This document shows positions 1 through 17,957 of a DNA stretch of 64,000 bases, one piece after another. How positions within the stretch are numbered: the stretch's first letter is position 1; each line of letters starts with the position of its first letter. The translations under genes and the position numbers were made by a program. Source of the DNA: an uncultured Gammaproteobacteria bacterium (GTDB taxonomy: Bacteria; Pseudomonadota; Gammaproteobacteria; Eutrophobiales; Eutrophobiaceae); the NCBI GenBank assembly GCA_963976795.1, contig CAXBLT010000006.1:81791-145790 (forward strand). The letters run 5' to 3'. The notes under the pieces were generated by a model. That model worked only from the letters and a program-made list of their open reading frames with translations. It ran no database searches and had not been told where the DNA came from.

Positions 1-457
1 CTAATGTCATAAGTAATTGTTGTCGTCTCATCTCTTGGAAAGCCTTCAAGTATGAGCGGGAAAGAATATTTGGTGCTGTCTCCACCTTCACCTTCCTTTT
101 TAGTTATGCTTTTAGTGCTGATAGCAACAGTAGGGAAATCATCGTTGAGGATTGTGCCTGTAACAGTTTTCTTCTCGCTCAGTGTAACTCCGTCGGTGAC
201 ACTGAGCGTAATCGCGAAGGTTTCGTCTTCCTCAACCTTCTCATCATTTTTAATAGTCAGTGTGATTTCTTTCGACGACTCACCTTTTTTGAATACCAGC
301 TTGCCGTTTAATTTATCCTCGTAATCAGCCGCATCAACGCCGGTGATAGTGTAAGGCACCGTCACAGAATCTTCTTCTGCGTACACGAAAGACAAACCAA
401 ACAGGTTTATCCCTGAGGCAAGGAACAGACTGAATATTGTGTATTGAATAAATTTCA
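1..457 (-). CDS. Secreted Calx-beta domain protein, N-terminal part; the gene runs off the window start.
   Basis: Minus-strand ATG at 457..455 (MKFIQYTIFSLFLASGINLFGLSFVYAEED...) gives a signal peptide. It is followed by Calx-beta-like segments (...KGESSKEITLTIKNDEKVEEDETFAITLSVTDG...). It is absent from the ORF track only because no stop codon falls inside the window. Confidence 0.5.
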
Positions 458-513
458 TCACTTATCTTTGCAGTGAGAAACGTTAACTAGAATAATATTC
501 ACACTTAGCATTC

Positions 514-3500
514 TTAAAATTGATCATTAGGTGAATGTTTAATAGTGATGTTCTGAATTAACGTGTTACCTTCAGAATCTTCTGCTTCGATTGTGAGTTT
601 AATTGTTATTTCACTATTAGCTTGTATGCTCTGATTTGTATCAAAATACCGTAGCTTTCCGTCATTCAATATCTCAAATATTAATCCAATTCGATTTTTT
701 GATTTTGTATGTACTTCGTAAGAATCATCTTCGATACTATAATATACTTCATGCCCTTCGGCCGACTTAATGTGTTCATTTAAATTCAGCACATCAATCA
801 CGGCGCCGCCGGTACCGGCAGTTTCATATAGTTCGTCAAATTTCTTGGCTACATACAGTCCTGTAGTCCCTGTAATTTCCAATGTGAGATTCGCTTCGCC
901 GGATGAGCCATTAGAATCAACTGCTGTAACACTGATGATTTGTGTACGATCTTCATGTTTTGAGGTTGCGAAAGTCAACGTGCTACCGGATATGCTAATA
1001 GTATCACTAGAAGAATCATTTTTAAGCGTGACATCATAAGTCAGTTCATCCTTATCGGGGTAAGAAAAATAATCAGAAAGATTTATTTCATTATCAACTC
1101 CAGAAAATACCTTTAATTCACCATCTATTCCTTTAGGGGCACCGTTAAAAACGGTAATTGCGACTTTTCCCGTAACACTACCTTCATTAGTATCGGTCGC
1201 AATGAAGCTAATACTGCCTTCCCCTCTTTCATTAGCGCTGAATCTTAAAATCCCACTAGGGCTTATCGTCACTCTTCCAAAACCAGGCCCACTCTCAACT
1301 ACAGCTGACAGTTCACCATTATCAAAAGAATCTTTATCGTCAGTAACATATTGAGAAAGATCTAATTCATAACTTTCACCAACAGTTAATCCAATTTCTA
1401 CATTAAATAACTGTCCACTCACCACTGGAGGCTCATCGACGTCTATAACATTAATCTCAACCGTTTTTGAATCTTGTTCTTCACCGTCTTCGTTTCGTAA
1501 GAATATGTCGACATTAAGTTTTTTGTAGCCTTTATCGGATAATGCGTCTGGGTCGCAAGTAAAATCACCTGTTGATTGATCAATATCACAATCCAATGAT
1601 TCATTAGATTTCCATCCATAGATAACGCTGGTGTTATCACCTAGCTCCGCAGTCACTTTGAATTTAAGGGTTTCATTGTCATTTACTGTTAAGGAAATGG
1701 TTTCCTTATCGCTCGCATTCTGACCGGCAATCGTTTTTAATTTAGATGGTTTAGTTTCAATAGCAACTGACACATTCACAGAAGAAGTTGATTTCGCCTT
1801 ATTGCCTTCGTCTGTAACCTCAACACTCAAGGTGCATGTCTGTTCTTCCCCTGTCTCATTCTGCGGCGCAGTCCATTTGCCTTCTTTCTTATTAATTTCG
1901 AACTCACCATTACCAATCTCACCGTCACATGTTGCCGACCATGTATAAGTCAAACCAGAATCCGTTGCCCCTTCCCAATTGTTTGCTGAAACAACGACAG
2001 TGTCTTGTGACTTAACTTCTGTCGATTCCGCTTCGACGGAGCCGCCGCTTGGTGGAATGGCCACTTGACAAGTAACACCCGCATATCCAGCCGCACACGA
2101 ACAGATAGCTTCTGTCTCGCCGTTCGTACACTGCCCACCGTTTTGACAGGGTGAATCTGCACAGTAATCCGGTCTAGTAACATCAATATTAAACGTTAAC
2201 GTGCCCGAGAGTGAGGGATTGCCATCGTCCGTGGCGGTGACCGTGATCGGATGAGTGCCAGCATGTGCGGAGGTTGGTGTCCACGTAAATGCACCAGTGC
2301 CTGTATTAATTGCCATTCCCTTAGCCGCCGAGGCCGAGTCTATCGCGTAACTCAAGGTGTTGGCGGGTATATCAGGATCAGCACTGACCACTGCAAAAGA
2401 AAGTACCGTCGACGCTTCCACACTCGTGTCATTAATCGGGTTCAACGCAGGCGGGCTGTTGCTTTCGAAGACGCCAATGGAAATGGTTTCACGGTCGGTA
2501 ACAGCAGCGTTGTCGCTACGCGTGGCGACAACATCGAAAACGTAGGAGCCCGGGCCGTCGCTCTCGTCTGTCGTCCAAGAAAAAACACCGGTGCTCGGAT
2601 CGATGCTGGCTCCGTTAGGAACGGCACCTTCAAGCGAATAGACCGGGGGCGCGCTTTCGCCAGGCACAGTTGCTGAAGCGCTGAAAGTGAGGAGGCTATT
2701 CTCACTAATGGATTGATCGCCAATCATATCGAGAGTGATGGAAAGGGTGACCTCGACGCTAAAAGTGAAAGTGTCGCTGAGTGAGGGATTGCCATCGTCC
2801 GTGGCGGTGACCGTGATCGGATGAGTGCCAGCATGTGCGGAGGTTGGTGTCCACGTAAATGCACCAGTGCCTGCATTAATTGCCATTCCCTTAGTCGCCG
2901 AGGCCGAATCTATCGCGTAACTCAAGGTGTTGGCGGGTATATCAGGATCAGCACTGGTCACTGCAAAAGAAAGTGCCGTCGACGCTTCCACACTCGTGTC
3001 ATTAATCGGGTTCAACGTTGGAGGACTGTTGACTTCAGCAACTTGAACCGAAACCGTTTTTCTGTCCGTTAGCCCCGCATTACTACTATTCGTCACCACA
3101 ACATCAAATGTAACTGTGCCGGGACCATCAGTTTCGCTTGTTTGCCAACTAAACAGGCCAGTATTTGGATCAATTGACGCTCCGCCTGGAAGATTACCGG
3201 ATTTCCCATCTTCCAAACTATAAATAGGGGTTCCATTATCGCCTGGGATGGTAGCAGTCGCCGTGAAGTTAACTAGGCCATTTTCATTCACAATTTGATC
3301 GCTAATCGGATTTAACACGGGCGTAATGGATACCTGACAATTGTCACCTTCAAATCCAGGCTGGCACGTACATGAATAGTCATTAACGCCGTCGACACAT
3401 TGCGCTCCATTTAGGCATTGGTTCGAGGCACACTCATCAATATTAGTTTCACAATTCTGCCCTGAAAATCCAGCCGCACACTCACAGGTAAAAGCATTAA

Positions 3501-3921
3501 CGCCGTCGACACATTGCGCTCCATTTAGGCATTGGTTCGAGGCACACTCATCAATATTAGTTTCACAATTCTGCCCTGAAAATCCAGCCGCACACTCACA
3601 GGTAAAAGCATTAACGCCGTCGACACATTGCGCTCCATTTAGGCATTGGTTCGGAGTACATTCATCACTACACGCTGCCTCCGTCGTTGCACAAGTACTT
3701 GCAGAACATTCAAAAGGACTCTCATCAGGACAGCTAAGCGTAACCGTAAAAGTTAATGTCTTATCTGTGCCTTCCGTGATTTCTGTTTTTCCTTCTTTCT
3801 GCGTTATAGAAGCGACCTTTTTAACAACTTTAGCGTCAGCGGCCTGTGCATACATAGGGAAAGCCAAGACCAAAAAGAAAAGGCTGGAAAGAAAAAATCG
3901 GGATATGTTTTTCAAGAGCAT
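514..3921 (-). CDS. Large secreted multidomain adhesin (1135 aa). Signal peptide, 3 tandem calcium-binding EGF-like modules plus 1 further EGF-like module, Ig-like (He_PIG / dystroglycan-type cadherin-like) repeats, and cadherin-like repeats.
   Basis: N-terminal signal peptide MLLKNISRFFLSSLFFLVLAFPMYAQA. Three near-identical 38-aa modules DIDECASNQCLNGAQCVDGVNAFTCECAAGFSGQNCETN match the cbEGF D-x-D-E-C pattern with 6 Cys. Repeated '...GASIDPxTGxFSWTxxESDGPG...' and '...LSYAIDSASAxKGMAINxGTGAFTWTPTSAHAGTHPITVTATDDGNPSLS' units follow. A cadherin-like 'INVIDVDEPP' motif lies in the C-terminal half. Confidence 0.85.
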   Translation of the reverse strand: MLLKNISRFFLSSLFFLVLAFPMYAQAADAKVVKKVASITQKEGKTEITEGTDKTLTFTVTLSCPDESPFECSASTCATTEAACSDECTPNQCLNGAQCVDGVNAFTCECAAGFSGQNCETNIDECASNQCLNGAQCVDGVNAFTCECAAGFSGQNCETNIDECASNQCLNGAQCVDGVNDYSCTCQPGFEGDNCQVSITPVLNPISDQIVNENGLVNFTATATIPGDNGTPIYSLEDGKSGNLPGGASIDPNTGLFSWQTSETDGPGTVTFDVVVTNSSNAGLTDRKTVSVQVAEVNSPPTLNPINDTSVEASTALSFAVTSADPDIPANTLSYAIDSASATKGMAINAGTGAFTWTPTSAHAGTHPITVTATDDGNPSLSDTFTFSVEVTLSITLDMIGDQSISENSLLTFSASATVPGESAPPVYSLEGAVPNGASIDPSTGVFSWTTDESDGPGSYVFDVVATRSDNAAVTDRETISIGVFESNSPPALNPINDTSVEASTVLSFAVVSADPDIPANTLSYAIDSASAAKGMAINTGTGAFTWTPTSAHAGTHPITVTATDDGNPSLSGTLTFNIDVTRPDYCADSPCQNGGQCTNGETEAICSCAAGYAGVTCQVAIPPSGGSVEAESTEVKSQDTVVVSANNWEGATDSGLTYTWSATCDGEIGNGEFEINKKEGKWTAPQNETGEEQTCTLSVEVTDEGNKAKSTSSVNVSVAIETKPSKLKTIAGQNASDKETISLTVNDNETLKFKVTAELGDNTSVIYGWKSNESLDCDIDQSTGDFTCDPDALSDKGYKKLNVDIFLRNEDGEEQDSKTVEINVIDVDEPPVVSGQLFNVEIGLTVGESYELDLSQYVTDDKDSFDNGELSAVVESGPGFGRVTISPSGILRFSANERGEGSISFIATDTNEGSVTGKVAITVFNGAPKGIDGELKVFSGVDNEINLSDYFSYPDKDELTYDVTLKNDSSSDTISISGSTLTFATSKHEDRTQIISVTAVDSNGSSGEANLTLEITGTTGLYVAKKFDELYETAGTGGAVIDVLNLNEHIKSAEGHEVYYSIEDDSYEVHTKSKNRIGLIFEILNDGKLRYFDTNQSIQANSEITIKLTIEAEDSEGNTLIQNITIKHSPNDQF
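2207..2460. repeat. Copy 1 of a near-identical 254-bp segment (about 97% identity to 2777..3030), embedded in an older, more diverged 570-bp in-frame tandem duplication inside the adhesin gene.
   Basis: The plus-strand shadow ORFs at 2251 and 2821 both start MSASMCGGWCPRKCTSACINCHSLSRRGR. DNA alignment of 2207-2460 against 2777-3030 shows only about 6 mismatches. The flanking parts of the 570-bp units match only at the protein level. Confidence 0.85.
2777..3030. repeat. Copy 2 of the near-identical 254-bp segment (partner of 2207..2460, offset 570 bp).
   Basis: Same evidence as for copy 1. Confidence 0.85.
3382..3723. repeat. Tandem repeat of period 114 bp, 3 copies (copy starts about 3382, 3496 and 3610). 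Each copy encodes one cbEGF module of the adhesin.
   Basis: Direct reading of the DNA shows 'attaacgccgtcgacacattgcgctccatttaggcattggttcgaggcacactcatcaatattagtttcacaattctgccctgaaaatccagccgcacactcacaggtaaaagc' repeated nearly identically. The third copy diverges at its distal end. Confidence 0.9.
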
Positions 3922-4211
3922 TGAAATATGAAAACTTTAAGGGGAATGAGCTCTTGCGTTATAGCGGTTGCTTGAGTAATACCCATAAACGGCCTATTAA
4001 TTGTTATATTTTATTTTTGTTTAATCTGGACTAAGTCGTTTTTTGACTACACTTAATTCTGAACGATTTTTTTTTAGCCTGCAATCAATAATTTAGTGGG
4101 ACTTTATTAATAAATAATCATGAAGTGATGTGGGGTGTAGAAGTCGACAAGATTGTCGGGGACGATTTTGGACGGCGTCACCGAGCACACTTTTTGACTA
4201 TGTCAAAGAAG

Positions 4212-4287
4212 TGGTGGGCCGTGTAGGGGTCGAACCTACGACAAATGGATTAAGAGTCCACTGCTCTACCAACTGAGCTAACGGCCC
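4212..4287 (-). tRNA. tRNA-Lys (anticodon CUU).
   Basis: Reverse complement: GGGCCGTTAGCTCAGTTGGTAGAGCAGTGGACTCTTAATCCATTTGTCGTAGGTTCGACCCCTACACGGCCCACCA. Cloverleaf with D-arm GCTCAGTTGGTAGAGC, anticodon loop CTCTTAA, T-arm GGTTCGA and an encoded CCA. Confidence 0.9.
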
Positions 4288-4307
4288 AAAGTTCAGATGT
4301 GATTAAA

Positions 4308-4384
4308 TGGGGTGAACGATGGGACTCGAACCCACGACGACCGGAATCACAATCCGGGGCTCTACCAACTGAGCTACGCTCACC
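4308..4384 (-). tRNA. tRNA-His (anticodon GUG), with the extra 5' G-1.
   Basis: Reverse complement: GGTGAGCGTAGCTCAGTTGGTAGAGCCCCGGATTGTGATTCCGGTCGTCGTGGGTTCGAGTCCCATCGTTCACCCCA. Anticodon loop TTGTGAT. The overall pattern is very close to E. coli hisR. Confidence 0.9.
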
Positions 4385-4443
4385 ATAATTAAACTATTAT
4401 CAGCAAAAGACTGACACCACACAATGATTTGGTTTTCATTGAT

Positions 4444-4520
4444 TGGCGCGCCTGAGAGGACTCGAACCTCTAACCCCCGGCTTAGAAGGCCGGTGCTCTA
4501 TCCGGTTGAGCTACAGGCGC
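4444..4520 (-). tRNA. tRNA-Arg (anticodon UCU).
   Basis: Reverse complement: GCGCCTGTAGCTCAACCGGATAGAGCACCGGCCTTCTAAGCCGGGGGTTAGAGGTTCGAGTCCTCTCAGGCGCGCCA. Anticodon stem-loop CCGGC-CTTCTAA-GCCGG. Confidence 0.9.
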
Positions 4521-4555
4521 ATTCATGTCCTTACCCAGAATACTTTAAAGTTAAA

Positions 4556-4632
4556 TGGTCGGGGCAGAGGGATTCGAACCCCCGACCCTCTGCTCCCAAA
4601 GCAGATGCGCTACCAGGCTGCGCTATGCCCCG
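4556..4632 (-). tRNA. tRNA-Pro (anticodon GGG).
   Basis: Reverse complement: CGGGGCATAGCGCAGCCTGGTAGCGCATCTGCTTTGGGAGCAGAGGGTCGGGGGTTCGAATCCCTCTGCCCCGACCA. Anticodon stem-loop CTGCT-TTGGGAG-AGCAG. Confidence 0.9.
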
Positions 4633-4666
4633 ATTGATTAACTCTCCTGCCTCAACAGGACGTGGG

Positions 4667-4695
4667 ATGATACGCAGTACACTGTATCGCGTCAA
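4667..4695 (-). promoter_or_regulatory. Candidate sigma70 promoter of the tRNA operon. On the minus strand it reads TTGACG-N17-TATCAT, followed by a GC-rich discriminator (CCCACG).
   Basis: The minus strand reads ...gaaTTGACGcgatacagtgtactgcgTATCATcccacgtcc... about 28 nt upstream of the tRNA-Pro 5' end. A GC-rich discriminator is typical of stringently controlled stable-RNA promoters. No search was run. Confidence 0.4.
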
Positions 4696-4732
4696 TTCCC
4701 AAACTTAAAATAAACTATACTAAAATAATCAA

Positions 4733-6124
4733 TTAGTTACGCCGCCAAACTGTGCCTTGTGGCGTATCTTCAAGACTAATACCCAAGCTTCCGAGATGAT
4801 CCCGGATCTGATCGGCTTTTTCATAATTTTTGTCTGCTTTTGCGACAACACGCTCATCAATAAAACTTTGGATGGCCGTTTCATCGAGATCGGTTTCATT
4901 CGAGCTGATTTTCGCTTGTAGAAATCCGACTGGATCATCCTGCAACAAGCCTAATATGCCGCCAAGTTTTCTCAACGTCGCCGTTAATTGAATCGCCTCA
5001 ATTGAGCTCTTATTGGCGGTTCGATTTAGATCTCGTGCCAATTCATGTAATAGCGAGATGGCCTTTGCCGTATTAAAGTCATCGTTCATGAATGAATTGA
5101 ACTCATCCAGACTCTTTTGAACCGGTTCAACATCATTAGCGTCAGATGTGTCCCTTAATGCCGTGTAAAGACCACTTAACGCAGCCTTTGCCTCTTCCAA
5201 ATTGTCGACTGAATAATTTAATGGACTACGATAATGACTGGATAGGATAAAAAAACGTATCACCTCTGGTTGAAACTTTTGTAGCACCTCTCTCAAGGTA
5301 AAAAAATTACCTAATGATTTCGACATCTTTTCTTCGTCAACCCGAACAAATCCATTATGCATCCAGACATTGGCAAACTCCTCGCCCGTTGAACACACTG
5401 ATTGAGCGATTTCATTCTCATGATGCGGAAACTGTAAATCTTGACCACCACCATGAATATCAAAATGGTTGCCCAAACAGTGCGTCGACATTGCCGAACA
5501 TTCGATATGCCATCCTGGGCGACCTTCGCCCCATGGTGAAGACCAGCTAGGTTCATTTGCTTTCGATGCCTTCCACAGGACAAAATCCAATGGGTCATCT
5601 TTTTCTTGCTGGACCTCTACACGCTCACCAGCTCTTAACTCATCGGTGTTCTTGCCCGATAAACGACCATAGGCTTCATACGAACTGACATCAAAATAGA
5701 CATCGTTATTACTACCAACATAGGCGTGTTTTCTTTCTATCAACGTTGAGATCATGTCAATAATTTCAGGCATATGCAGTGTCGCTTTTGGTTCTGCGTC
5801 TGGTGCAATAACACCAAGTGCGCTTGCATCCTCGTTCATTGCATCAATAAAACGTTCCGTTAACTCGGAGATAGTCTCTTTGTTCTCATTTGCACGATTA
5901 ATTATTTTATCGTCGATATCAGTGATATTGCGCACATAGGTCACATCATAATGACTGTGTCGCAAATAACGCGAGATCATATCGAAAACCACCATCACAC
6001 GCGCATGACCGATATGACATAAGTCGTACACAGTCATGCCACAAACGTACATACTCACCTTGCCCGGTTCGATTGGGGTGAAGTCTTCTTTTTGCCCACT
6101 TAAACTATTGTAAATTTTTAACAC
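4733..6124 (-). CDS. cysS: Cysteine--tRNA ligase (class I), with a probable GTG start at 6124.
   Basis: HIGH motif (CHIGH) and KMSKS motif. It aligns with E. coli CysS from '[15 protein letters not shown]' onwards (E. coli: MLKIFNTLTRQKEEF). The track ORF extends 20 codons further upstream to an ATG at 6184 that has no counterpart in CysS. Zinc-binding residues and '[15 protein letters not shown]' are conserved. Confidence 0.95.
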
Positions 6125-6347
6125 GCTTATATTTTTAGATTTATTTATGAGTGTTCGTTTAAAACACCTCGTGCCCTGATACATGTAGTCGTCTCAGTTC
6201 ACGACATACGCCCACACCCATGCAGATAATAGACGCGCATCTTATCGGAAAGGACCTTATGCGACAAAAGGAATTTGTCATTCATATCAATCTGGGCATA
6301 ATCACAATATAAAATTCAACACTTAATATTAATACTGGAGATTAATC

Positions 6348-6895: not shown

Positions 6896-7645
6896 ATGAC
6901 AACGCTCTTTGTTTCAGATCTGCACCTGAGTAATCGGCGACCTGAAAAACTTGCCTTATTCAAAAAGTTAATGTCGGGCGCAGCAAAAAAGGCTGATGCG
7001 TTTTACATACTGGGTGATTTGTTTGATGACTTCTGGATTGGTTGCGATGATCAGCATCCACCCAATCAGGAAGTCATTTCTATTTTACGTGATTATTCAA
7101 ACGTTAATTCAACTCAATTATTTGTAATGCGCGGCAATCGAGATTTTCATCTAAACCAGGAATTTGCTAATAAAACGGGCTGTACTTTAATCGAAGATCC
7201 AACTGACATTATGCTTAATGATAAAAAAACTCTGTTAATGCATGGAGACACCTTATGCACTGATGATGTGAAGTATCAGAAATGGCGGAAATTTATTACT
7301 AACCCTGTTATTAAATGGATCTATTTCATTATGCCTCTGAAATTGAGAACACACATATCACATAACGTTCGAGGCTACGCGGCAGAGGCTGTACAGAAAA
7401 AGGCACCGGAAATCATCGATGTGACTGAAGAAGCGGTATTAAATACTTTTGAACGCTTTAACGTAGAAACATTGATTCATGGTCACACGCACCGACAGGC
7501 AAGACATGAAGTACCATTAAACAATAGACAGGCAACAAGATTTGTTTTGGGTGAGTGGTTCGAGCAAGACTGCGTGTTAGTCCATGATAAAACCGGTTTC
7601 AGGTTTGAGCGCGTAGATGACTATATCATCGAATACGGAAAGTAG
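6896..7645 (+). CDS. lpxH: UDP-2,3-diacylglucosamine diphosphatase.
   Basis: N-terminal calcineurin-like metallophosphoesterase motif 'LFVSDLHLS'. Length is 249 aa, and the gene follows ppiB as in enterobacteria. Confidence 0.85.
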   Translation: MTTLFVSDLHLSNRRPEKLALFKKLMSGAAKKADAFYILGDLFDDFWIGCDDQHPPNQEVISILRDYSNVNSTQLFVMRGNRDFHLNQEFANKTGCTLIEDPTDIMLNDKKTLLMHGDTLCTDDVKYQKWRKFITNPVIKWIYFIMPLKLRTHISHNVRGYAAEAVQKKAPEIIDVTEEAVLNTFERFNVETLIHGHTHRQARHEVPLNNRQATRFVLGEWFEQDCVLVHDKTGFRFERVDDYIIEYGK

Positions 7646-8430
7646 GGTCAGATACAACTTTCCTCATCTTTTCTTTGGCCTCCCCATAGTGGCAGGCCTT
7701 ACTCTTTGCCCATATAGTGTTTCCAGTTCTTCTTTAAATCGGTCATTGCCTAATGCCATCCCTTTATTAACCGAGCTACGTATTTGCTCTAATAGCTCAT
7801 CATCAACATGTGCTTTAAACATAGATTTATATGCACTTAACCGTTCCTTTTTATTCGTTCCAAGTCTTAAATACTCTTCATGCGGTTTACAAAGTTCAGT
7901 GTTAATACCAAGAGCATTGCATCGATAGCTTGACCAAAAATACTCAGAGGGATCGTGGACCATGTCTGCCCGAATCGGATTTAACTCAATATAACGGTAA
8001 CACTGCAATAAATACGTTTCTGTCTGAACAAGACTCGATTTAAAACGACCTTCCCAGAGTGTGCCCGATCGTTGATACTGATAATTAAAGTATTGAACAT
8101 AACGTCGGCCCAGTGCCTGCATCATTGCAGACACCCCATCACTACTTGTCGGTGTTACCAGCAAATGAACATGATTTGTCATAAACACCCAAGCATGAAT
8201 CGCAACGTGAAATTTTTGTGAATATTCTTTTAACCAATTTGAATAAGCAGCAAAATCATGTTTGCTTCCAAAACAAACACTCCTATTGTTTCCGCGCTGT
8301 ACCACATGCTGAGGTATGCCCGAAGGACATAATCGAGGTAAACGTGCCATGGTTGCTTCCTTGTAACCAATTAAAAATAAAGTTTAAACTATGCCTGATC
8401 TCTTAGTAAATAATAAGTTGTATCTGACCC
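7645..8430. mobile_element. Miniature RAYT-type element bounded by perfect 16-bp inverted repeats GGGTCAGATACAACTT (7645..7660 and 8415..8430).
   Basis: The inverted repeats are read directly from the DNA. They enclose a single Y1-transposase-like gene. The left repeat begins on the last base of the lpxH stop codon. Confidence 0.55.
7664..8350 (-). CDS. REP-associated tyrosine transposase-like protein (Y1 / IS200-like transposase_17 family).
   Basis: N-terminus 'MARLPRLCPSGIPQHVVQRGNNRSVCF'. HxH motif 'HVHLL' and a downstream Tyr ('CYRYIELNP') are typical of HUH-Y1 TnpA_REP proteins. Length is 228 aa. Confidence 0.8.
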   Translation of the reverse strand: MARLPRLCPSGIPQHVVQRGNNRSVCFGSKHDFAAYSNWLKEYSQKFHVAIHAWVFMTNHVHLLVTPTSSDGVSAMMQALGRRYVQYFNYQYQRSGTLWEGRFKSSLVQTETYLLQCYRYIELNPIRADMVHDPSEYFWSSYRCNALGINTELCKPHEEYLRLGTNKKERLSAYKSMFKAHVDDELLEQIRSSVNKGMALGNDRFKEELETLYGQRVRPATMGRPKKR

Positions 8431-8452
8431 CACTTTTCGCATCGAATGTGAA

Positions 8453-9316
8453 TTAACCCAGCGTGCCTGACAAGGTCATGATACCTAATATGGCAAGCCA
8501 AATAATCAAGGTTCGATTAAGCAATCCTTTAAGCTCATCTATCCAATAAGCCTTTTCTCTGTCAGGTACGTCAATGTCTGTTCTGTATTGTAAGGCCCCT
8601 ATTCCAGCATCTATCAGGACTTGATTATTCACTTCAATGGAAAGATGTTCTGATTTACTCCAACCTGGCATGGCATCAACCAAATGTCCTCCAAGGGCAA
8701 GTCCGAGCACCATTGCCCTTGATGAAGGCCATTCGAGAATGTTGATTAAAATAGATGAACTGTCAGCAAAACCACTGCGTATCTCGCTGAACTCATTATT
8801 TATCTCATCAACCACTCGATAAAGTAATGCGCCAACAGGGCCCAGAATTAAAAACCAGAAAATAACGGAAAATGTACGTTTATGTGATTCCACCAGACTA
8901 GATTTAATGATCGCGATTTCGTTAGAATCATTTTCGCTGAGCAATGTTTCATCGATTAAACCTTCTGCCAATTCAGTCACCGCATCAACCTTACCCTCAT
9001 CTACTGCGGTAATATATTCATCAAGACGGTTATCCAGATCTTCCGGGGCAAGACAATAAATCAATACGATAAGAGAGATAACTATCTCTACTATCCATGA
9101 CAGTGAACAGGCAAGGCATAACACGATAATGAGCCCAGATAGCGCAATAGCTAAGACAAGTAATAAGCCGCATGTCCCATCCCAGAACTTATATTGCGCC
9201 AACCGTTTCTCTAAGCTGTAATACAACGAAACACACCAGTTAAAATTACGATGGCGCTCTAACCCACCCAGAAAAAAATCCAGGCTCAAGGCAATAAGAA
9301 TAACGATTAATGTCAT
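8453..9316 (-). CDS. ampE: AmpE-like inner-membrane protein (beta-lactamase induction signal transducer).
   Basis: 287-aa polytopic membrane protein. N-terminus 'MTLIVILIALSLDFFLGG...' resembles E. coli AmpE. It overlaps ampD by 4 bp (the ampDE operon arrangement). Confidence 0.7.
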   Translation of the reverse strand: MTLIVILIALSLDFFLGGLERHRNFNWCVSLYYSLEKRLAQYKFWDGTCGLLLVLAIALSGLIIVLCLACSLSWIVEIVISLIVLIYCLAPEDLDNRLDEYITAVDEGKVDAVTELAEGLIDETLLSENDSNEIAIIKSSLVESHKRTFSVIFWFLILGPVGALLYRVVDEINNEFSEIRSGFADSSSILINILEWPSSRAMVLGLALGGHLVDAMPGWSKSEHLSIEVNNQVLIDAGIGALQYRTDIDVPDREKAYWIDELKGLLNRTLIIWLAILGIMTLSGTLG

Positions 9317-9956: not shown

Positions 9957-10718
9957 ATGTGCCGATTAGCCGCTTATCTTGGTACTGAGATATCCCTAGC
10001 CGTATTTTTGCAAGAACATGAGCATAGCCTTGTTCAGCAATCATGGGCGCCAAAAGAAATGCAAGGCGGCATTTTAAATGCAGATGGCTACGGTGTCGCA
10101 TGGCTGACAAACAATATTCCCAGTAGCTATAAAAACGTCTTGCCTATCTGGTCTGATATAAATTTGGATAGTCTAGGTCGCTCTCTTAGTAGTCAATTAT
10201 GGCTGGCAAATGTACGCAGTGCTACAACAGGTCAGGGCGTTAGTGAGGCGAATACTCAACCTTTTATAAAAGATAATCTGATTTTTACCCATAACGGTAG
10301 CCTGAAACCATTTGATAAAAATATTAAGGCACGTTTTCTCGATTTATTGCCAAATACAATCAGTGCAGAAATTACGGGTGATTCAGATTCATTGTATTTA
10401 TTCGCTTTGTTACAGCATCACCTACAAAATCAAGATTCATTATCCAATGCCATAATTTCAACAATGAATGATTTAAAGTCGATATGTAGTGACACCGTCT
10501 CGGCACTATTAAATACCGTCATCAGTAACGGGGACTCACTATATGCCTGTCGACATGCATTGAATGGAAACTGTCCCAGTCTTTATTATCTTTACAAAGA
10601 AAATAATGTTTGGCTAGCATCGGAACCTCTCTCTCCAAATGAGACATGGAACACTTTCCCTGAGCATAGCTTTATGCGTTTTGATCATTCTGGAGTGATT
10701 GAAGATTACAAATTATGA
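9957..10718 (+). CDS. egtC: Class-II (Ntn) glutamine amidotransferase, EgtC-like amidohydrolase.
   Basis: Starts 'MCRLAAYLG' with the catalytic Cys2. Conserved 'LVQQSWAP', 'ILNADGYG', 'RSATTG' and 'HNG' match mycobacterial EgtC. It overlaps the next gene by ATGA. Confidence 0.7.
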   Translation: MCRLAAYLGTEISLAVFLQEHEHSLVQQSWAPKEMQGGILNADGYGVAWLTNNIPSSYKNVLPIWSDINLDSLGRSLSSQLWLANVRSATTGQGVSEANTQPFIKDNLIFTHNGSLKPFDKNIKARFLDLLPNTISAEITGDSDSLYLFALLQHHLQNQDSLSNAIISTMNDLKSICSDTVSALLNTVISNGDSLYACRHALNGNCPSLYYLYKENNVWLASEPLSPNETWNTFPEHSFMRFDHSGVIEDYKL

Positions 10719-11869
10719 AGGAATTAATTGCGACGTTTCGCTTATTACAAAACGAAACTCTTGATATTGTCAGTGCCCTCCCGAAAACACATTATCATAA
10801 ACAGTTTCACCCCGACTTAAGTCCGATTGGATGGCACCTTGGGCACTGTGTTTTCACAGAAAGCTATTGGATAAAAGAACAGTTACTCGAAAAAAAAATA
10901 CTCGGCGACTCATTAAAATCACTTTACGTACCTGAATTAAGTGTCAAACAATCCCGCGCCGCAGCGTTACCTGATAAAAAAAGCATGCTTGCATGGGCTA
11001 AAGAGACACAAGTAGAAAACGTTAGCTTGCTTGAATTAGCAACGACACAATTAAGCTCTCATGAGTTATTAAAAAATGATTATTTAATTCATTTTTTAAT
11101 CCAACACTATTCACAACACATTGAAACCATGATGATGGTGCTAACGACAATGCAGATTCAGCGTGGGCACACTGAATTCACGCCATCTCAAGCCCTGGAA
11201 TCTAGTCAACTACAAAAAGAATTTACTACGATTGTATCCAGCACCTACAATATTGGTAACGTAGAAAGCAATGTTCCTTATGATAATGAACACCCGGTTC
11301 ACGACGTAGATTTGAGTAGCTACAATATAGCGCGTTATCCAGTATCAAATGGTGAGTACTTAAGTTTTATGAGTTCAGGGGCTTACTCAACTAAAGAATT
11401 TTGGTCCGAAGCAGGCTGGGAATGGAACATCAATCACAATTCGGCTCACCCATACCATTGGCAAAAACATAAAAACGGGATTTGGTATGGTATCGATCAT
11501 CAAGGACCATTCCCTTTGAAAGAGGCTCATCCCGTACACGGGTTAAACCAGTTTGAAGCAGCGGCCTATGCGAAATGGGCTGGAGCCAGGTTACCGCATG
11601 AATATGAATGGGAGGCAGCGGCTAAAAACCATCTATTACAACAAACCGGATTAGTATGGGAGTGGTGTAATAATCAGTTTCATCCTTATGATGGTTTTTT
11701 GCCTTACCCTTACGCAACTTATTCCGCACCCTACTTTGATGAGCAACATTATGTATTAAAGGGTGGGAGTCGATATACAAAAGAACACATCAAACGGGCA
11801 AGTTTTCGAAATTATTATCAGGCTGACAAACGTCATATTTTTTCAGGTTGTCGATTAGTTTACGATTGA
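10715..11869 (+). CDS. egtB: EgtB/OvoA-type sulfoxide synthase-like protein (N-terminal DinB_2 domain plus C-terminal FGE-sulfatase domain).
   Basis: DinB_2 motif 'GWHLGHCVFTESYW' and His-rich 'HYSQHIETM' form the putative iron facial triad. The C-terminal FGE-like part has 'SNGEYLSFM', 'WEWEAAA' and 'VWEWCNN'. Length is 384 aa, shorter than typical EgtB (about 430 aa). Confidence 0.65.
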   Translation: MKELIATFRLLQNETLDIVSALPKTHYHKQFHPDLSPIGWHLGHCVFTESYWIKEQLLEKKILGDSLKSLYVPELSVKQSRAAALPDKKSMLAWAKETQVENVSLLELATTQLSSHELLKNDYLIHFLIQHYSQHIETMMMVLTTMQIQRGHTEFTPSQALESSQLQKEFTTIVSSTYNIGNVESNVPYDNEHPVHDVDLSSYNIARYPVSNGEYLSFMSSGAYSTKEFWSEAGWEWNINHNSAHPYHWQKHKNGIWYGIDHQGPFPLKEAHPVHGLNQFEAAAYAKWAGARLPHEYEWEAAAKNHLLQQTGLVWEWCNNQFHPYDGFLPYPYATYSAPYFDEQHYVLKGGSRYTKEHIKRASFRNYYQADKRHIFSGCRLVYD

Positions 11870-13051: not shown

Positions 13052-14428
13052 ATGCCCTGGTTACAAGATAAGTTAAACCTTTTAAGCAGCATCATCTGGG
13101 GAGAGTACTTGCTCATTCCTCTGCTCGCTATCGTAGGGATCTACCTGACGATTGGGCTACGTGCCATGCCTTGGCGAAAAATACCTCTCGCATTTCAAAC
13201 CCTGTGGCAAGGCCGAAAGGAGTCCTCTCAAAACAAAGGTGATATCAGCCCGTTTCAGGCCTTAATGACAGCCCTATCGGCAACTGTTGGCACCGGCAAT
13301 ATTGCCGGTGTTGCCACAGCAATTTATTTCGGAGGACCTGGCGCAATCTTCTGGATGTGGGTCATTGCTATTTTCGGTATGGCAACAAAATACGCCGAAG
13401 CAGTGCTTGCCGTGAGCTATAGAGAGACTGATGCACTTGGCAACTACGTTGGCGGTCCAATGTATTATATACGTAACGGCTTGGGGGATAATTGGCGCTG
13501 GATGGCTGCCTCATTCGCTTTTTTTGCCATGATTGCTGCATTTGGTATTGGCAATATGGTTCAATCCAATTCTGTAGCAGACGAGATTCATTCAAGCTTC
13601 AATATTCCCACTTGGCTTACTGGCGCTGTGATATCTGTACTCGCCTCCTTAGTCATTATTGGCGGAGTAAAACGTATCGCACAGGTTGCCTCAAAACTGG
13701 TTCCTTTTATGGCGGCGATTTATATTCTTGCTGCGTTAGTGATCATCCTCCTTAATATAGAAAAGTTACCTGCGGCTTTTTTACTCATTATTGAAAGCGC
13801 GTTCACAGGCTCTGCCGCAAGTGGTGGTTTTCTTGGTGCATCAATCTGGATGGCCATACGTTGGGGTTTTGCCAGAGGTATTTTCTCAAATGAAGCTGGC
13901 CTGGGTAGTGCTCCTATTGCTCATGCAGCAGCTCAAACGACTGATCCGGTAAAACAAGGCATGGTCGCCATGTTGGGTACCTTTATTGATACCCTTATCC
14001 TCTGTAGCCTGACGGCATTCGTCATCATTATTACCGGGGCATGGGATAGCGGCTTACAAGGCGCGCCTATGTCATCACGTGCGTTTTCAATCGGGCTATA
14101 TGGCTATGGCGGTTATATCGTTAGTTTTGGACTGGTTTTATTCGCCTTCTCAACCATACTCGGATGGAGTTATTACGGTGAACGATGTGCCAGTTACCTC
14201 TTTGGCACAAAGATTATTATTTATTATCGAATAGTGTGGATTATAGCTATCTTCATCGGCGCTGTAGTAAAACTGGAATTAGTCTGGGCATTTGCAGATG
14301 TACTCAACGGGTTGATGGCATTACCTAACCTTATCGCCTTGCTACTACTTAGCCCCATTGTCTTTAGCAAAACACGGCAATACTTTAACAATAAAAATTC
14401 AACATGGTCATTAACCAGAAAGATATAA
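13052..14428 (+). CDS. Alanine/glycine:cation symporter (AGCS family).
   Basis: 458-aa polytopic protein. 'FQALMTALSATVGTGNIAGVATAIYFGGPGAIFWMW' matches the AGCS signature region. Confidence 0.85.
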   Translation: MPWLQDKLNLLSSIIWGEYLLIPLLAIVGIYLTIGLRAMPWRKIPLAFQTLWQGRKESSQNKGDISPFQALMTALSATVGTGNIAGVATAIYFGGPGAIFWMWVIAIFGMATKYAEAVLAVSYRETDALGNYVGGPMYYIRNGLGDNWRWMAASFAFFAMIAAFGIGNMVQSNSVADEIHSSFNIPTWLTGAVISVLASLVIIGGVKRIAQVASKLVPFMAAIYILAALVIILLNIEKLPAAFLLIIESAFTGSAASGGFLGASIWMAIRWGFARGIFSNEAGLGSAPIAHAAAQTTDPVKQGMVAMLGTFIDTLILCSLTAFVIIITGAWDSGLQGAPMSSRAFSIGLYGYGGYIVSFGLVLFAFSTILGWSYYGERCASYLFGTKIIIYYRIVWIIAIFIGAVVKLELVWAFADVLNGLMALPNLIALLLLSPIVFSKTRQYFNNKNSTWSLTRKI

Positions 14429-15231
14429 GTGCAAATGTTAAATCGGCATTAGCCGAAGATGTGGGTGATGGTGATGTAACTGCGGAGTTGATCCCGGAAA
14501 CTGCCATGGCATCAGCAACATTAATTACTCGCGAACATGCCATCGTCGCCGGGTGCCAGTGGTTTGATGAAGTATTTAATCAGTTGGCTCCTGCTACATC
14601 GATAAATTGGCAGATTGCAGATGGTGATGCCGTCGTACCAGAACAAATACTATGTACTATCGAAGGTTCAGCTCGATCGCTGTTGACTGGCGAGCGTACT
14701 GCCATTAATTTTTTACAAACACTCTCTGCGACGGCAACAACCGTTGCCAGTTTTGTCGACATCATAAAAGATACCCATACGAAAATATTAGATACTCGCA
14801 AAACTATTCCCGGTTTACGGCTTGCTCAAAAATATGCGGTCGCATGCGGCGGCGGGACTAATCATCGTATCGGTCTTTTTGACGCCATCCTTATCAAAGA
14901 AAATCACATAATGGCAGCGGGTAGCATTACGCAAGCAGTTACACAAGCCAAAGCAAAGAATCTACCTGTGGAAGTAGAAGTTGAATCTTTATCTGAGCTG
15001 GAAGAGGCATTAGAAGCAAAAGCAGATCAAATATTATTGGATAACTTTGATCTGGCATTACTAGAAAAAGCGGTCAATATCAATCAGGGTCGAGCCAAGC
15101 TCGAAGCCTCCGGCAATATTAGCAAAGACGATTTATATGCTATTGCGAAAACCGGTGTTGACTACATCTCTATTGGCGCATTAACCAAACACATTCGGGC
15201 AATTGATTTTTCCATGCGCATTAATCTATAG
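14404..15231 (+). CDS. nadC: Nicotinate-nucleotide diphosphorylase (carboxylating), i.e. quinolinate phosphoribosyltransferase.
   Basis: 'TRKTIPGLRLAQKYAVACGGGTNHRIGLFDAILIKENHI' is the conserved QPRTase core. Length is 275 aa. Synteny with ampDE matches E. coli. Confidence 0.9.
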   Translation: MVINQKDISANVKSALAEDVGDGDVTAELIPETAMASATLITREHAIVAGCQWFDEVFNQLAPATSINWQIADGDAVVPEQILCTIEGSARSLLTGERTAINFLQTLSATATTVASFVDIIKDTHTKILDTRKTIPGLRLAQKYAVACGGGTNHRIGLFDAILIKENHIMAAGSITQAVTQAKAKNLPVEVEVESLSELEEALEAKADQILLDNFDLALLEKAVNINQGRAKLEASGNISKDDLYAIAKTGVDYISIGALTKHIRAIDFSMRINL

Positions 15232-16026: not shown

Positions 16027-17205
16027 ATGAGTACGAACTTGAAATACCCTAATAAAGACACAAAATCATGGCTGAATAAGCACACGATCCTCTTTTTTTT
16101 ATTTTTTCTCTGTTCAACGACAGTTTTTGCTGCAAGTTATGAGGAAGGCAAGCAGGCTTATCTGAAGAAAAACTATGCACTAGCACTTGAGATCCTCAAG
16201 CCTCTGGCAGAACAAGGTGACTCACAGGCCCAAATCACTATGGGCCTAATGTATGACTATGGTCATGGCGTAGAAAAAAGCCCCGCTGAATCGATAAAAT
16301 GGTATCTCATGGCGGCTGAGCAGGGTGTGCCTCTGGTACAGCATGATATTGGAGTAAAATACTTTCAGGGACAGGGTGTAGAACAAAATTACCTTGAGGC
16401 TGCCAAGTGGTGGGAACAATCGGCTAATTCTGGTATTGCTGACTCTCAATTCAACCTTGGCTTAATGTACTATCGCGGGATCGGCATTCCAAAGGATTAT
16501 GTAAAAGCAGCAAAGTTATTCGAGGATGCAGCCGAACAAGGGCATGGCAACGCACAATATAGTCTGGCCGTTATGTACGCCTTTGGTCAGAGTAAAACCA
16601 AGAACTATGCCACAGCCTTAAAATGGTTCAACAAATCTGCGGAGCAAGATATTGCTCAGGCTCAGTTCAACCTTGGGGTATTCCATGAAAATGGATATGG
16701 CGTAGAGAAAGATAACGTCGAAGCAAGAAGATGGTATCAGCTCGCCGCGGATCAAGGCTTAGAGGAAGCAAAGCAGAAGTTGAAAGGACTTGATAATAGC
16801 AAAACAATGGTTGTAACAAATTCCGAAAATCTTAAAAAGCCTGGTAAGACGGAAACGACGTCTGATCCTGGTAACTCAGTCTCAGTAGCTGCGCCTGCCT
16901 CTTCTGAAAACAACTTGAATCTGAGCGATTGGCTAAGGCTACAAGCTACGGATAATTACACGCTACAACTAGGTAGCGTCATTAATGAAAATGATATTAT
17001 TAACTATATAAAAAGGTCAGGTCTTGGTTCAAAGGCAGGATATATTGTCGTCAGTGTGAATGGCGTAACTCGGTACACGGCTATATATGGGCTTTATGAT
17101 AGTTATGCCAACGCAGAAGCTGCCGTCAGCGAACTCCCTTTACCCATTCAGAAGTCTAAACCTTGGGTCCGGAACACGGGCATACTGCAAGGTCTATTAC
17201 TATAA
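16027..17205 (+). CDS. Sel1-repeat (TPR-like) protein with a C-terminal SPOR peptidoglycan-binding domain; a signal or anchor peptide is present.
   Basis: Multiple Sel1 units (e.g. 'AQITMGLMYDYGHGVEKSPAESIKWYLMAAEQG', 'SQFNLGLMYYRGIGIPKDYVKAAKLFEDAAEQG'). C-terminal 'YTLQLGSVINENDIINYIKRSG...YIVVSVNGVTRYTAIYGLYDSYANAEAAVSELP' resembles the SPOR domain of DamX/FtsN-type proteins. Confidence 0.8.
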   Translation: MSTNLKYPNKDTKSWLNKHTILFFLFFLCSTTVFAASYEEGKQAYLKKNYALALEILKPLAEQGDSQAQITMGLMYDYGHGVEKSPAESIKWYLMAAEQGVPLVQHDIGVKYFQGQGVEQNYLEAAKWWEQSANSGIADSQFNLGLMYYRGIGIPKDYVKAAKLFEDAAEQGHGNAQYSLAVMYAFGQSKTKNYATALKWFNKSAEQDIAQAQFNLGVFHENGYGVEKDNVEARRWYQLAADQGLEEAKQKLKGLDNSKTMVVTNSENLKKPGKTETTSDPGNSVSVAAPASSENNLNLSDWLRLQATDNYTLQLGSVINENDIINYIKRSGLGSKAGYIVVSVNGVTRYTAIYGLYDSYANAEAAVSELPLPIQKSKPWVRNTGILQGLLL

Positions 17206-17228
17206 TAGTACCGCGGGGATAAAAAATT

Positions 17229-17957
17229 GTGGCCTCGTTTAAAGAAATTCTAAATTCAAACGAAGAAGAACTGCTTCAGCTTCTTTATAAATTCAATATC
17301 TCGACTGAAAGCAGCGAAGATAAAGCTGAAGCTATCGGAATGAAATTAAAATTACGCGAAGCTCAATTAATCTGTGCGATTGGTTTTAATGAATCAACCA
17401 GAAATTTGCCTGAAATACCTCCTATCCTTGGATTTGATAATTATGATGCTTTATTGAATTCTCGGAACGAATTCTTTACAACAGACATCTACAAATTAGT
17501 AAGTTTAGACAACATCCTTTCTATATACTCAGTCGTAAAAAATGATGGCGCAAGTAAACAAATTCTAGAATACTTGTTATCAAACCGACTTAAGTCAATT
17601 GAAAAACGAATCGATGAAACAGTAAACTCATTGATTATAGATAAATATAAAGAAGAAATGCGTGCCATTTATTCCGATGGCATTGTCGGTATTGATTTTG
17701 CAGAAAATCGACTTGAGCAGTCAGATAGTGGCTTTCGTGCCTTATTAAACGAAGTCACATTGATCGTTGAAAACAAGATTATTCCTATTGGTGAGTTATT
17801 TTTCCGAGATTCCATTTTGCCGCAAGAGAAGAGAAAACTACTCAATAAAGGCCTAATTCCAAGACCTTTAATCGAGGCACGCCTCGAAGATCCAAATATT
17901 TCGGATGTCGAGAAAAAGATCCTTTATGATTACATGAAACTACACCGTGAGAGCTAA
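17229..17957 (+). CDS. Hypothetical cytoplasmic protein, paralog A of a tandem pair (GTG start).
   Basis: 242 aa with no signal peptide. It is clearly homologous to the next ORF (MASFKEILNSNEEELLQLLYKFN.../MISFTELLTASDDELVRIFYKTN...; 'LICAIGFNESTRNLPEI' vs 'LVCALGFNKHIRELTDI'; 'NEFFTTDIYKLVSLDNILSIYS' vs 'NELFTTDTYTQLPIDNILDIYS'). No recognisable family. Confidence 0.7.
   Translation: MASFKEILNSNEEELLQLLYKFNISTESSEDKAEAIGMKLKLREAQLICAIGFNESTRNLPEIPPILGFDNYDALLNSRNEFFTTDIYKLVSLDNILSIYSVVKNDGASKQILEYLLSNRLKSIEKRIDETVNSLIIDKYKEEMRAIYSDGIVGIDFAENRLEQSDSGFRALLNEVTLIVENKIIPIGELFFRDSILPQEKRKLLNKGLIPRPLIEARLEDPNISDVEKKILYDYMKLHRES

Follow-up and report, generated by a model that had tools for sequence, protein, structure and literature searches.

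A TIRtron-like unit with a group-1 RAYT gene at the junction of lpxH and ampE in an uncultured gammaproteobacterium

The stretch analysed here (the window) comprises 64,000 nucleotides of DNA from an uncultured gammaproteobacterium (GenBank assembly GCA_963976795.1, contig CAXBLT010000006.1, positions 81,791–145,790). Between the converging genes lpxH and ampE it contains a single gene for a transposase of the REP-associated tyrosine transposase (RAYT; REP, repetitive extragenic palindrome) branch, enclosed by two inverted repeats. The unit is very probably a TIRtron, that is, a TIRYT gene bracketed by 25-bp terminal inverted repeats (TIRs) with a GGG[T/A]CAG core, and its gene belongs to TnpA_Y1 subclass 2.1, which corresponds to RAYT group 1. 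Positions are those of the window unless stated otherwise, and contigs and loci outside the window are cited by L numbers. The features of the locus are as follows.

6896–7645, + strand: lpxH (UDP-2,3-diacylglucosamine diphosphatase), 249 aa; NCBIfam PRK05340 267.5 bits, TIGR01854 249.6 bits
7627–7634, no strand: left 8-bp direct repeat CATCGAAT, resembling a target-site duplication; maps to the single CAAGGAAT of the empty sites in L140 and L141
7636–7660, + strand: lpxH-side inverted repeat CGGAAAGTAGGGTCAGATACAACTT, 3' of the transposase gene; contains the perfect 16-mer (7645–7660) and GTAG with the invariant core GGG-T-CAG
7661–7670, − strand: 10-nt insertion relative to homologues, AAGAAAAG[ATGAGGAAAG]TTGTATC (3' ends compared with L018, L004, L008, L012 and L016; placement ambiguous by a few nucleotides)
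7664–8350, − strand: TIRYT or group-1 RAYT gene (TnpA_Y1 subclass 2.1), 228 aa; H60-V-H62, Y120 in YIELNP, C-terminal extension of about residues 140–228 ending in GRPKK
8351–8414, − strand: putative leader and promoter region, 64 nt; TGGTTACAAGGAAGCAACC (with Shine-Dalgarno sequence AAGGA) immediately before the ATG, preceded at about 25 nt by a TAAACT box
8415–8439, − strand: ampE-side inverted repeat, 5' of the transposase gene; on the gene strand CGAAAAGTGGGGTCAGATACAACTT, including GGGGTCAG, which matches the published GGGGWSAS
8440–8447, no strand: right 8-bp direct repeat CATCGAAT, where homology to the empty site resumes, exact over GAATGTGAATTAACCCAG
8453–9316, − strand: ampE (CobD/CbiB-AmpE family), 287 aa, intact; Pfam PF03186/PF17113

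One intact open reading frame (7664–8350, − strand, 228 aa) lies between the repeats, and the window holds one transposase copy. The protein scores 48.5 bits against Pfam PF01797 (Y1_Tnp; cut-off 23), with residues 14–122 covering positions 7–119 of the 121-position profile. Since its scores against both NCBIfam REP_Tyr_transpos (64.6 bits; cut-off 80) and NCBIfam transpos_IS200 (23.5; cut-off 55) fall below threshold, it is neither an equivalog of the E. coli-type RAYT nor an IS200 transposase. The sole solved structure matched by sequence is E. coli TnpA_REP (4ER8), weakly (E 0.008); in this alignment H60-V-H62 pairs with HMH of 4ER8 (the HUH motif) and Y120 with the tyrosine of DYIYINP (the Y-x3-NP motif). 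An AlphaFold (AF2) model built on 24 homologues (predicted local distance difference test, pLDDT, 79.3; predicted template-modelling score, pTM, 0.79) has 4ER8 as its top fold match in the PDB (Foldseek; E 8e-8, TM-score normalised to target 0.71), followed by the TnpA proteins of IS200, IS608 and ISDra2 (E about 1e-5). The key motifs TNHVHLL, LWEGRF and RYIELNP are present, and H60, H62, Y120, N124, P125 and the C-terminal G223-R-P225 are invariant among the 24 homologues. Residues 140–228, approximately, are conserved among homologues and modelled as helices (pLDDT 57–91). The Y1_Tnp score, the motif alignment and the top fold match bear out the original prediction, made from the letters of the DNA, of a single HUH-Y1 transposase gene of the RAYT branch; the possibility it raised that the HUH and tyrosine residues are missing falls away, as H60, H62 and Y120 all align to 4ER8.

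The ratio of nonsynonymous to synonymous divergence (dN/dS) is 0.06–0.09 against five homologues, wherever synonymous sites are unsaturated; the gene is under strong purifying selection. A word-indexed search returned at least 8000 candidate homologues, and identity is 65–78% across SAR86, Porticoccus, Endobugula, Eionea and others. In homologues the downstream repeat encodes the final codons K-S-C-I-stop, whereas in the window the 10-nt insertion creates an earlier TGA, so that the protein ends in GRPKKR and the repeat begins 3 nt past the stop codon. On the 5' side, the leader is conserved only within a close clade (the window, L004, L008, L012, L013, L016, L018 and L152). A consensus scan of the locus found no strict sigma-70 consensus on the transposase strand, for which reason the promoter is given as putative, and no terminator-like site. 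The leader segment TGGTTACAAGGANGCAACC (8351–8375, − strand) is nearly invariant in the close clade despite saturated synonymous sites and could form a TGGTT/AACCA stem around the Shine-Dalgarno sequence. An IS200-like leader hairpin that sequesters the Shine-Dalgarno sequence was considered as a family feature and rejected, stems of at least 5 bp being seen 7 times against 8.1 expected from shuffles; striking leader hairpins do occur at the single loci L150, L166, L192, L210 and L218.

The sequence GGGTCAGATACAACTT is found at 7645–7660 (+) and, inverted, at 8415–8430 (−), as originally predicted. These are its only copies in the window: tolerating up to 3 mismatches revealed no others, and the 10-nt core GTRGGGTCAG is likewise confined there to the two flanking copies. 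The earlier description of perfect 16-bp terminal inverted repeats holds for a perfect core and needs correction as to extent. The perfect part reaches 17 bp when one inner T is added (7645–7661 and 8414–8430), a repeat search lengthens the pair to 28 nt with 89% complementarity (7633–7660 and 8415–8442), and the TIRs proper were set at 25 nt, 23 of them matching (7636–7660 and 8415–8439), after the comparison with empty sites described below; GGGTCAGATACAACTT is the perfect core inside them. None of 200 flank shuffles reached the observed inverted-repeat score and the motif recurs around homologous genes in dozens of unrelated loci, so the pair is not a product of chance. The repeats start with GT[AG]G (AAGTAGGG and AAGTGGGG), and the lpxH-side copy reads AGGGTCAG, which agrees with GGGGWSAS at 7 of 8 positions. 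As single-stranded DNA, 7637–7663 forms a 7-bp stem (GGAAAGT/ACTTTCC) with a 13-nt loop (−4.3 kcal/mol, z = −2.95). No Rfam family was matched within 7300–8800 at E values up to 1. Two strain variants, L227 and L228 (99.2–99.8% identity), have the same arrangement as the window. L227 (99.2% identical) contains an additional tandem CACTTTTC in the outer part of the ampE-side repeat (equivalent to about 8431–8439), which resembles the stacked partial copies (CCCCACTTATTTGACCCCACTTATTT) beside homologues in L016 and L021.

The same layout recurs across the family, as judged from flanking DNA of homologues taken from assemblies and a metagenome scan. In the close clade (L004, L008, L012, L013, L016 and L018) the sequence AAGT[AG]GGGTCAG[AG]TnnnACTT lies 59–101 nt upstream of the ATG, and its inverted copy overlaps the last codons and stop of the gene (e.g. 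...AAG AAA AGT TGT ATC TGA CCCTACTT). Most loci of the wider family (49–65% identity) that have enough flank carry 15–34-bp inverted repeats at the same two positions, and the order repeat–gene–repeat was found in about 50 homologous loci with unrelated neighbourhoods. The core GGG[T/A]CAG is invariant family-wide and GT[AG]G is confined to the close clade. The repeat also has an internal dyad, in which the seven positions 5' of the core pair with the seven 3' of it: 64.5% of the cells are paired compared with 48.9% in shuffled data, the covariation score is 0.401 compared with 0.177, and in neither case was the value reached in 500 shuffles; controls with a slid register were all lower, at most 53.5%. 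The arms vary by lineage (AAGT/ACTT, ATCAAT/ATTGAT, AAACC/GGTTT and AATT/AATT).

The extent of the inserted DNA was determined from relatives that lack it. An LpxH search returned relatives at 79–87% identity, and L140, L141 and L145 share the gene order of the window, cysS-ppiB-lpxH><ampE-ampD-(GATase)-(DinB/FGE-sulfatase), with no gene between lpxH and ampE; the two converging genes abut in L145, and in L140 and L141 they share 18 nt. This supports insertion of the unit into a conserved lpxH/ampE neighbourhood, as had been proposed, and the relatives lack the unit as a whole, not just the transposase from an otherwise ancestral sequence. Global alignment of window positions 7200–9000 with L140 or L141 gives a single 813-nt gap (7627–8439 or, equivalently, 7635–8447) between flanks that are 85% identical over 896 nt. 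The inserted DNA is therefore 805 bp (7635–8439) plus an 8-bp duplication, in place of the 786 bp first assigned to the element. The junctions compare as follows.

Empty site: GACTATATCAAGGAATGTGAATTAACCCAG
Window, left: GACTATAT CATCGAAT A-CGGAAAGTAGGGTCAG...
Window, right: ...CTGACCCCACTTTTCG-CATCGAAT GTGAATTAACCCAG

From this comparison, the 25-bp repeats are abutted by a perfect 8-bp direct repeat, both copies of which correspond to one segment of the empty site, and the boundaries of presence and absence coincide with the ends of the inverted repeats. Direct repeats of at least 8 bp at both ends (offsets of 0–3 nt) arose in 106 of 200,000 random flank pairs, a chance of about 5e-4.

The final lpxH codons GGA AAG TAG (7637–7645) come from the inverted repeat of the element. 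The LpxH C-terminus, ...DDYIIEYGK (249 aa), differs from the ...DDYIKECELTQST of the empty-site relatives (253 aa), the unit having replaced the last seven or so codons and supplied new ones together with the TAG (7643–7645). The insertion was thus not exactly at the stop codon, as first described; the TAG does end with the first G of the 16-mer (7645), but the repeat extends 9 nt further into lpxH. AmpE is untouched, its C-terminus ...LSGTLG being the same in the window, L140, L141 and L145. In the relative represented by L143 (2153–2850) and L144 (4763–5520), with 81% LpxH identity, the site is also empty and ampE is apparently degraded, just a 168-aa CobD_Cbib fragment being called, 189 nt from lpxH. 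The stop codon of the converging neighbour lies inside the downstream repeat at three loci: in the window (7643–7645) and L018 (5696–5698), where the neighbour is lpxH, and in L004 (5700–5702), where it is a GFA-domain gene. There is a tendency for the unit to be located at the very 3' end of a convergent gene, which then takes its stop codon from the unit.

L018, a metagenome-assembled genome (MAG) from NCBI, carries a RAYT 78% identical to that of the window in a unit that is likewise located at the end of lpxH. Its junction is 8 nt deeper in lpxH (...GAATGCGAATTG/GAAAAGTAGGG), LpxH ends in ...ECELEK, and HigBA, a repeat cluster and an RHS gene are found on the other side instead of ampE. 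On cysS, ppiB and lpxH, L018 is 90–91% identical to the empty-site L140 and L141 and only 85% identical to the window, and in each of the window's two direct-repeat copies a derived TC replaces the AG present in every relative. The closer relationship of L018 to L140 and L141, the differing junctions and the derived TC in both copies favour independent insertions. The synonymous divergence (dS) between window and L018, about the same for the RAYT (1.4) as for the host genes (1.6), favours long residence in both lineages. The two units may represent two gains at a preferred site, or one gain followed by precise loss. At 3962–4260 of L018 the unit is preceded by five direct copies of the repeat, 52–103 nt apart and each followed by a similar sequence of about 45 nt; beyond these copies (within 1–4895) lie a HigB/HigA pair and a large RHS-repeat gene.

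The combination of subclass-2.1 motifs and TIRs with the GGGGWSAS-type GGGGTCAG places the element in a class that has already been described. TIRYT genes within TIRtrons were reported by Di Nocera, De Gregorio & Rocco (2013; BMC Genomics 14:522, PMC3733652), according to whom many TIRYT repeats share GGGGWSAS, are similarly spaced from the gene and in some cases overlap its 3' end, and repeat copies are solo, dimeric or clustered and moderately abundant in some genomes. For TnpA_Y1 subclass 2.1, Table 1 of Quentin, Siguier, Chandler & Fichant (2018; PMC6006769) lists NHVH (or NH[YF]H), W[EQ] and YIELNP (or Y[IV]HLNP) as motifs and 238 aa as median length; these authors equate the subclass with TIRYTs, and it absorbs 291 of the 292 Group 1 RAYTs of Bertels, Gallie & Rainey (2017; PMC5581495). 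Group 1 has the second-highest duplicate and plasmid frequencies among RAYT groups and is the second most IS-like (IS, insertion sequence; PMC5581495). The unit had been seen as a compact RAYT element; the RAYT branch and the inverted repeats are real, but the precise name is TIRYT/TIRtron and not a REP-associated RAYT of groups 2 and 3.

By analogy with E. coli TnpA_REP and IS608 TnpA, the protein would be a single-stranded DNA nuclease and ligase. Its target would be the repeat, read through the conserved loop and probably in the form of a hairpin exposed where DNA is single-stranded at replication forks; cleavage nearby by means of Y120 and an HUH-bound metal would be followed by religation. 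The unit would be a long-term, mostly vertically inherited resident that rarely relocates, and in some genomes the enzyme may also spread solo or paired copies of the repeat, much as RAYTs are presumed to spread REPs. Being at a fixed distance from the start codon, the upstream repeat may serve as an operator. That TIRtrons of this clade still move as whole units, by a reaction not known from HUH-Y1 enzymes, with symmetric action on two inverted hairpin-like ends and a staggered cut that leaves an 8-bp duplication, and with a preference for the 3' ends of converging genes whose stop codons they would supply, is doubtful, since the 8-bp repeat is found at the lpxH-ampE locus only; the preference itself is supported by the genes that end inside a repeat (the lpxH genes of the window and L018 and the GFA-domain gene of L004).

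Several points weigh against this interpretation of the unit. The inverted ends place the recognised strand on opposite strands, so one-strand excision of the IS608 type does not fit, and IS200/IS605-type HUH-Y1 transposition does not yield an 8-bp flanking duplication. No duplication resembling the 8-bp repeat was seen beside the unit at the roughly 50 metagenomic loci, at L035, L081 or L085, or at the Iodobacter and P. aeruginosa copies described below, nor even at the perfect-repeat loci L004, L151, L156, L196, L199, L204 and L210. The window itself contains no additional cognate repeats. The dyad is real at the level of the family and weak, as only the lpxH-side copy of the window folds; the ampE-side repeat has a stem of just 4 bp at about 0 kcal/mol and is not stably folded, and across the family the dyad is AT-rich with 35% of its cells unpaired. 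A Pfam scan of residues 140–228 at E values up to 10 gave no helix-turn-helix (HTH) domain, only an insignificant match to Phage_T7_Capsid; HTH-like C-terminal similarity (Bac_DnaA_C, HTH_23 and HTH_28) is heterogeneous within subclass 2.1 (PMC6006769) and hence a weak criterion. Finally, tnpA_REP genes show no evidence of mobility and REPtrons do not transpose as a unit, according to the passages on them in PMC8266576 and PMC6006769.

Copies of the repeat and of the unit were also sought elsewhere. L008 has an inverted repeat doublet 3.4 kb from the gene, and in L016 partial copies are stacked on either side. A scan of a genome collection with GGGTCAGRTACAACTT gave at least 120 matches; about 550 chance matches are expected in 596 Gb, so most of those listed are due to chance. 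The extended motif is present in just 24 of the 120 matches listed, with the source genome not among them. Also among the matches listed are one Ca. Endobugula MAG, at least 4 contigs of which carry copies, as well as Porticoccaceae NORP16 and a Pseudomonadales chromosome, both with two sites. Homologues of the gene are rare on plasmids (27 of 72,556 records). One P. aeruginosa record (L234, NZ_CP116719.1) has three homologous units (14239–14931, 16538–17230 and 22170–22862; 41% identity) with GGGGACAG-type repeats of about 35 bp, interspersed with orphan toxin/immunity cassettes (DUF637/CdiA-like, EndoU, deaminase and glutamine deamidase). A segmental duplication contains two of these units, the upstream flanks of all three differ and no target duplication was seen. 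Plasmid pl1 of Iodobacter fluviatilis (L235), a mobilizable MOBP plasmid, carries a homologue at 4933–5800 (63% identity) beside a HipA/HTH toxin–antitoxin pair, with AATAACTGGGGTCAGAG-type repeats and a third, solo copy 450 bp away at 4483. Multiple plasmid copies were rejected as evidence of transposition: two of the three P. aeruginosa copies belong to the segmental duplication, and the second place in Iodobacter is probably an annotated IS200/IS605 tnpA (33761–34192).

Many Tara/ENA assemblies have contigs that equal exactly the interior of the element (754 bp, 7661–8414; L003 and L233) or the 786-bp unit (7645–8430; L232), and one such contig recurs in 19 samples. Assemblies evidently break at the edges of the perfect 16-mer, which fits population heterogeneity at the repeats (e.g. 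an IS present or absent) or ambiguity from the inverted repeats. At four unrelated loci the terminal 30 nt or so of an IS4-family insertion sequence (GAATGGCACTTACTTAAGC..., whose transposase ends in ...GHPKKLK) abut the repeat core, and in other Tara/ENA samples the same end abuts both repeats of the window's element. The IS4-family ends are at 1–32 of L229, 754–801 of L230, 752–799 of L231, about 1258–1300 and 2140–2160 of L079, 287–330 of L120, about 2005–2050 of L209 and about 1328–1345 of L156. Two junction forms (GGGTCAGNNNN/IS and IS/GGGTCAG) fit a duplication of about 11 bp of GGGTCAGNNNN. Some insertion sequences target REPs, and the junctions, which lie on separate contigs and may come from chimeric assembly, suggest by analogy that the IS4-family element targets the repeat core. 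The 754-bp and 786-bp contigs were accordingly set aside as proof that the unit occurs in several contexts, since the alternative flank in L229–L231 is the IS4-family end against the repeat core.

Other readings of the locus account for part of these data. The one that survives best, though we consider it unlikely, is an active autonomous insertion sequence with a mechanism not described before, whose Y1 enzyme acts symmetrically on the inverted ends and nicks opposite strands, so that a staggered cut leaves a duplication of 8 bp as in cut-and-paste transposition. In its favour, the 25-bp repeats are abutted by a perfect 8-bp direct repeat of which the empty sites have one copy, at the low chance given above, and the limits of presence and absence match the repeat ends. 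The related unit of L018, 8 nt away in the tail of lpxH and in a host nearer to the empty L140 and L141 (90–92% protein identity) than to the window (85%), suggests repeated insertion at the site. Neighbourhoods of homologues differ in every lineage sampled, three copies with different upstream flanks lie within the 24-kb P. aeruginosa record, and the 27 plasmid records can be set beside the published duplicate and plasmid frequencies of group 1 (PMC5581495). Against it, the duplication was seen at one locus only, the window has a single copy, and the divergence of the gene tracks that of its host with dN/dS below 0.1, a housekeeping-like pattern unlike that of a recently spreading insertion sequence. 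We know of no HUH-Y1 enzyme that makes target duplications, which also counts against an autonomous insertion sequence.

Less probable still is a canonical REPtron, in which the gene would be an E. coli- or Pseudomonas-type RAYT and the flanking repeats two members of a large genome-wide population of REPs and REPINs. The GT[AG]G start of the repeat is like the 5' tag of REPs (PMC8266576), the repeats are inverted around the gene, TnpA_REP is the best fold match, and the doublet near the L008 gene and the copy cluster of L018 are REPIN-like and clustered, respectively. The REP_Tyr_transpos score nevertheless remains below its cut-off, sequence similarity to 4ER8 is slight, and the motifs agree with subclass 2.1 and not with 2.2 or 2.5. 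GT[AG]G is limited to the close clade while the family-wide invariant is GGG[TA]CAG, and a short stem with a 13-nt loop is not a REP palindrome. E. coli has about 600 REPs per genome (PMC8266576); at one per 8 kb or so in a 4.6-Mb genome about 8 extra copies would be expected in 64 kb, compared with the zero found.

We give very little credence to an ancestral chromosomal gene that never moved and was lost from the relatives, its repeats being merely regulatory or terminators. Gene divergence between window and L018 equal to host divergence, strong purifying selection and an upstream repeat at a conserved distance from the ATG all agree with such a history. The empty state, with an intact 253-aa LpxH that overlaps ampE, is however common to L140, L141 and L144 (L145 has a 246-aa variant), and the empty-site genomes include lineages that branch outside the window–L018 pair, so this precise state would need to have been regenerated several times; moreover, homologues in every other lineage have unrelated neighbourhoods, and the window has a duplicated target sequence. 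An ordinary insertion sequence of the IS200/IS605 family, suggested by the Pfam family name 'Transposase IS200 like' and by the significant fold matches to IS200, IS608 and ISDra2 TnpA, is refuted by the motif and model-score tests (Y-x3-NP of class 2 instead of Y-x3-Q of class 1, and transpos_IS200 below cut-off), and also disagrees with a protein that exceeds the subclass-1.1 median of 152 aa (PMC6006769, Table 1) by about 75 aa, with inverted repeats in place of two different subterminal hairpins on one strand, and with the absence of tnpB and the one copy in the window.

Two observations concern other genes of the window. The mechanically called cysS reading frame (4733–6184, − strand) has 483 aa compared with 463 aa in four relatives, and translation probably begins some 20 codons after the first ATG. 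Beside ampD, 9957–11869 holds a GATase_4 gene and a DinB_2 + FGE-sulfatase gene; the pair recurs at the corresponding position in L140 and is also present in L143. We take this pairing to resemble EgtC/EgtB of ergothioneine biosynthesis.

Subclass-2.1/group-1 RAYTs form the largest class of RAYT-like genes, found in about 15% of strains (Quentin et al.; PMC6006769). As a natural experiment the locus is unusually clean: one lineage has the site filled and three close relatives have it empty, the boundaries lie exactly at the inverted repeats, and an 8-bp direct repeat flanks the unit. Should that repeat be a true target duplication, transposition of the class as whole units, by a mechanism unlike that of IS200/IS605, would follow; if it arose by chance, the locus is just a well-delimited example of a known and probably domesticated element. 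For annotation, the point is that an essential lipid-A gene has received a new C-terminus and stop codon from the element and has not been inactivated.

Among known systems, the HUH-Y1 fold is shared with IS200/IS605 (IS608 and ISDra2 TnpA), as are presumed recognition of a single-stranded DNA hairpin and insertion without large rearrangement. In those elements the motif is Y-x3-Q, as opposed to Y-x3-NP here, they are multi-copy and often accompanied by tnpB, and they have neither inverted repeats nor a target duplication. REPtrons (E. coli TnpA_REP, RayT/YafM, 4ER8; group 2, subclass 2.2) resemble the unit in fold, in HUH and Y-x3-NP motifs, in the GTAG-type tag and in having a gene, single-copy within the 64 kb, between cognate repeats in inverted orientation. 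The window protein differs from 4ER8 in its extra C-terminal domain of about 85 aa, with 18% identity over the structural alignment, and the window is without a high-copy REP population. Its repeats carry the GTAG/GTGG tag; their 13-nt loop is closed by a stem of 4–7 bp that is stable at just one end of the unit, and such a short stem and large loop contrast with the long bulged palindrome of REPs.

The closest correspondence is with TnpA_Y1 subclass 2.1/RAYT group 1 and with TIRtrons. The former is matched in NHVH, W[EQ] and YIELNP, in length (228 aa compared with the median of 238 aa), in the C-terminal extension beyond the core of about 111 aa, and in housekeeping-like selection and occasional plasmid and duplicate copies; low copy number is a trait of the subclass, and the 64-kb window has one copy; the published HTH-like C-terminal similarity was not recovered by Pfam for the window protein, and where the passages of Quentin et al. 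on subclass 2.1 (PMC6006769) report no REP-like structures near these genes, a short dyad is supported here. TIRtrons likewise consist of one RAYT-like HUH-Y1 gene with terminal inverted repeats instead of REP palindromes; they share GGGGWSAS (here GGGGTCAG), a similar distance between repeat and coding sequence and a downstream repeat that can overlap the 3' end of the gene, and their repeats occur as singles, dimers and clusters in some genomes and are absent from others. Compared with the description of TIRtrons in the corresponding passages of PMC3733652, the repeat of the window's clade begins with GT[AG]G and has a co-varying internal dyad, and a filled and an empty site can be paired, with an 8-bp direct repeat at the flanks. 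The dyad, the GT[AG]G tag in a marine clade and the filled/empty pair with its 8-bp repeat appear to go beyond those published descriptions, and the duplication-like 8-bp flank is the sole unexpected detail of this unit of a known class.

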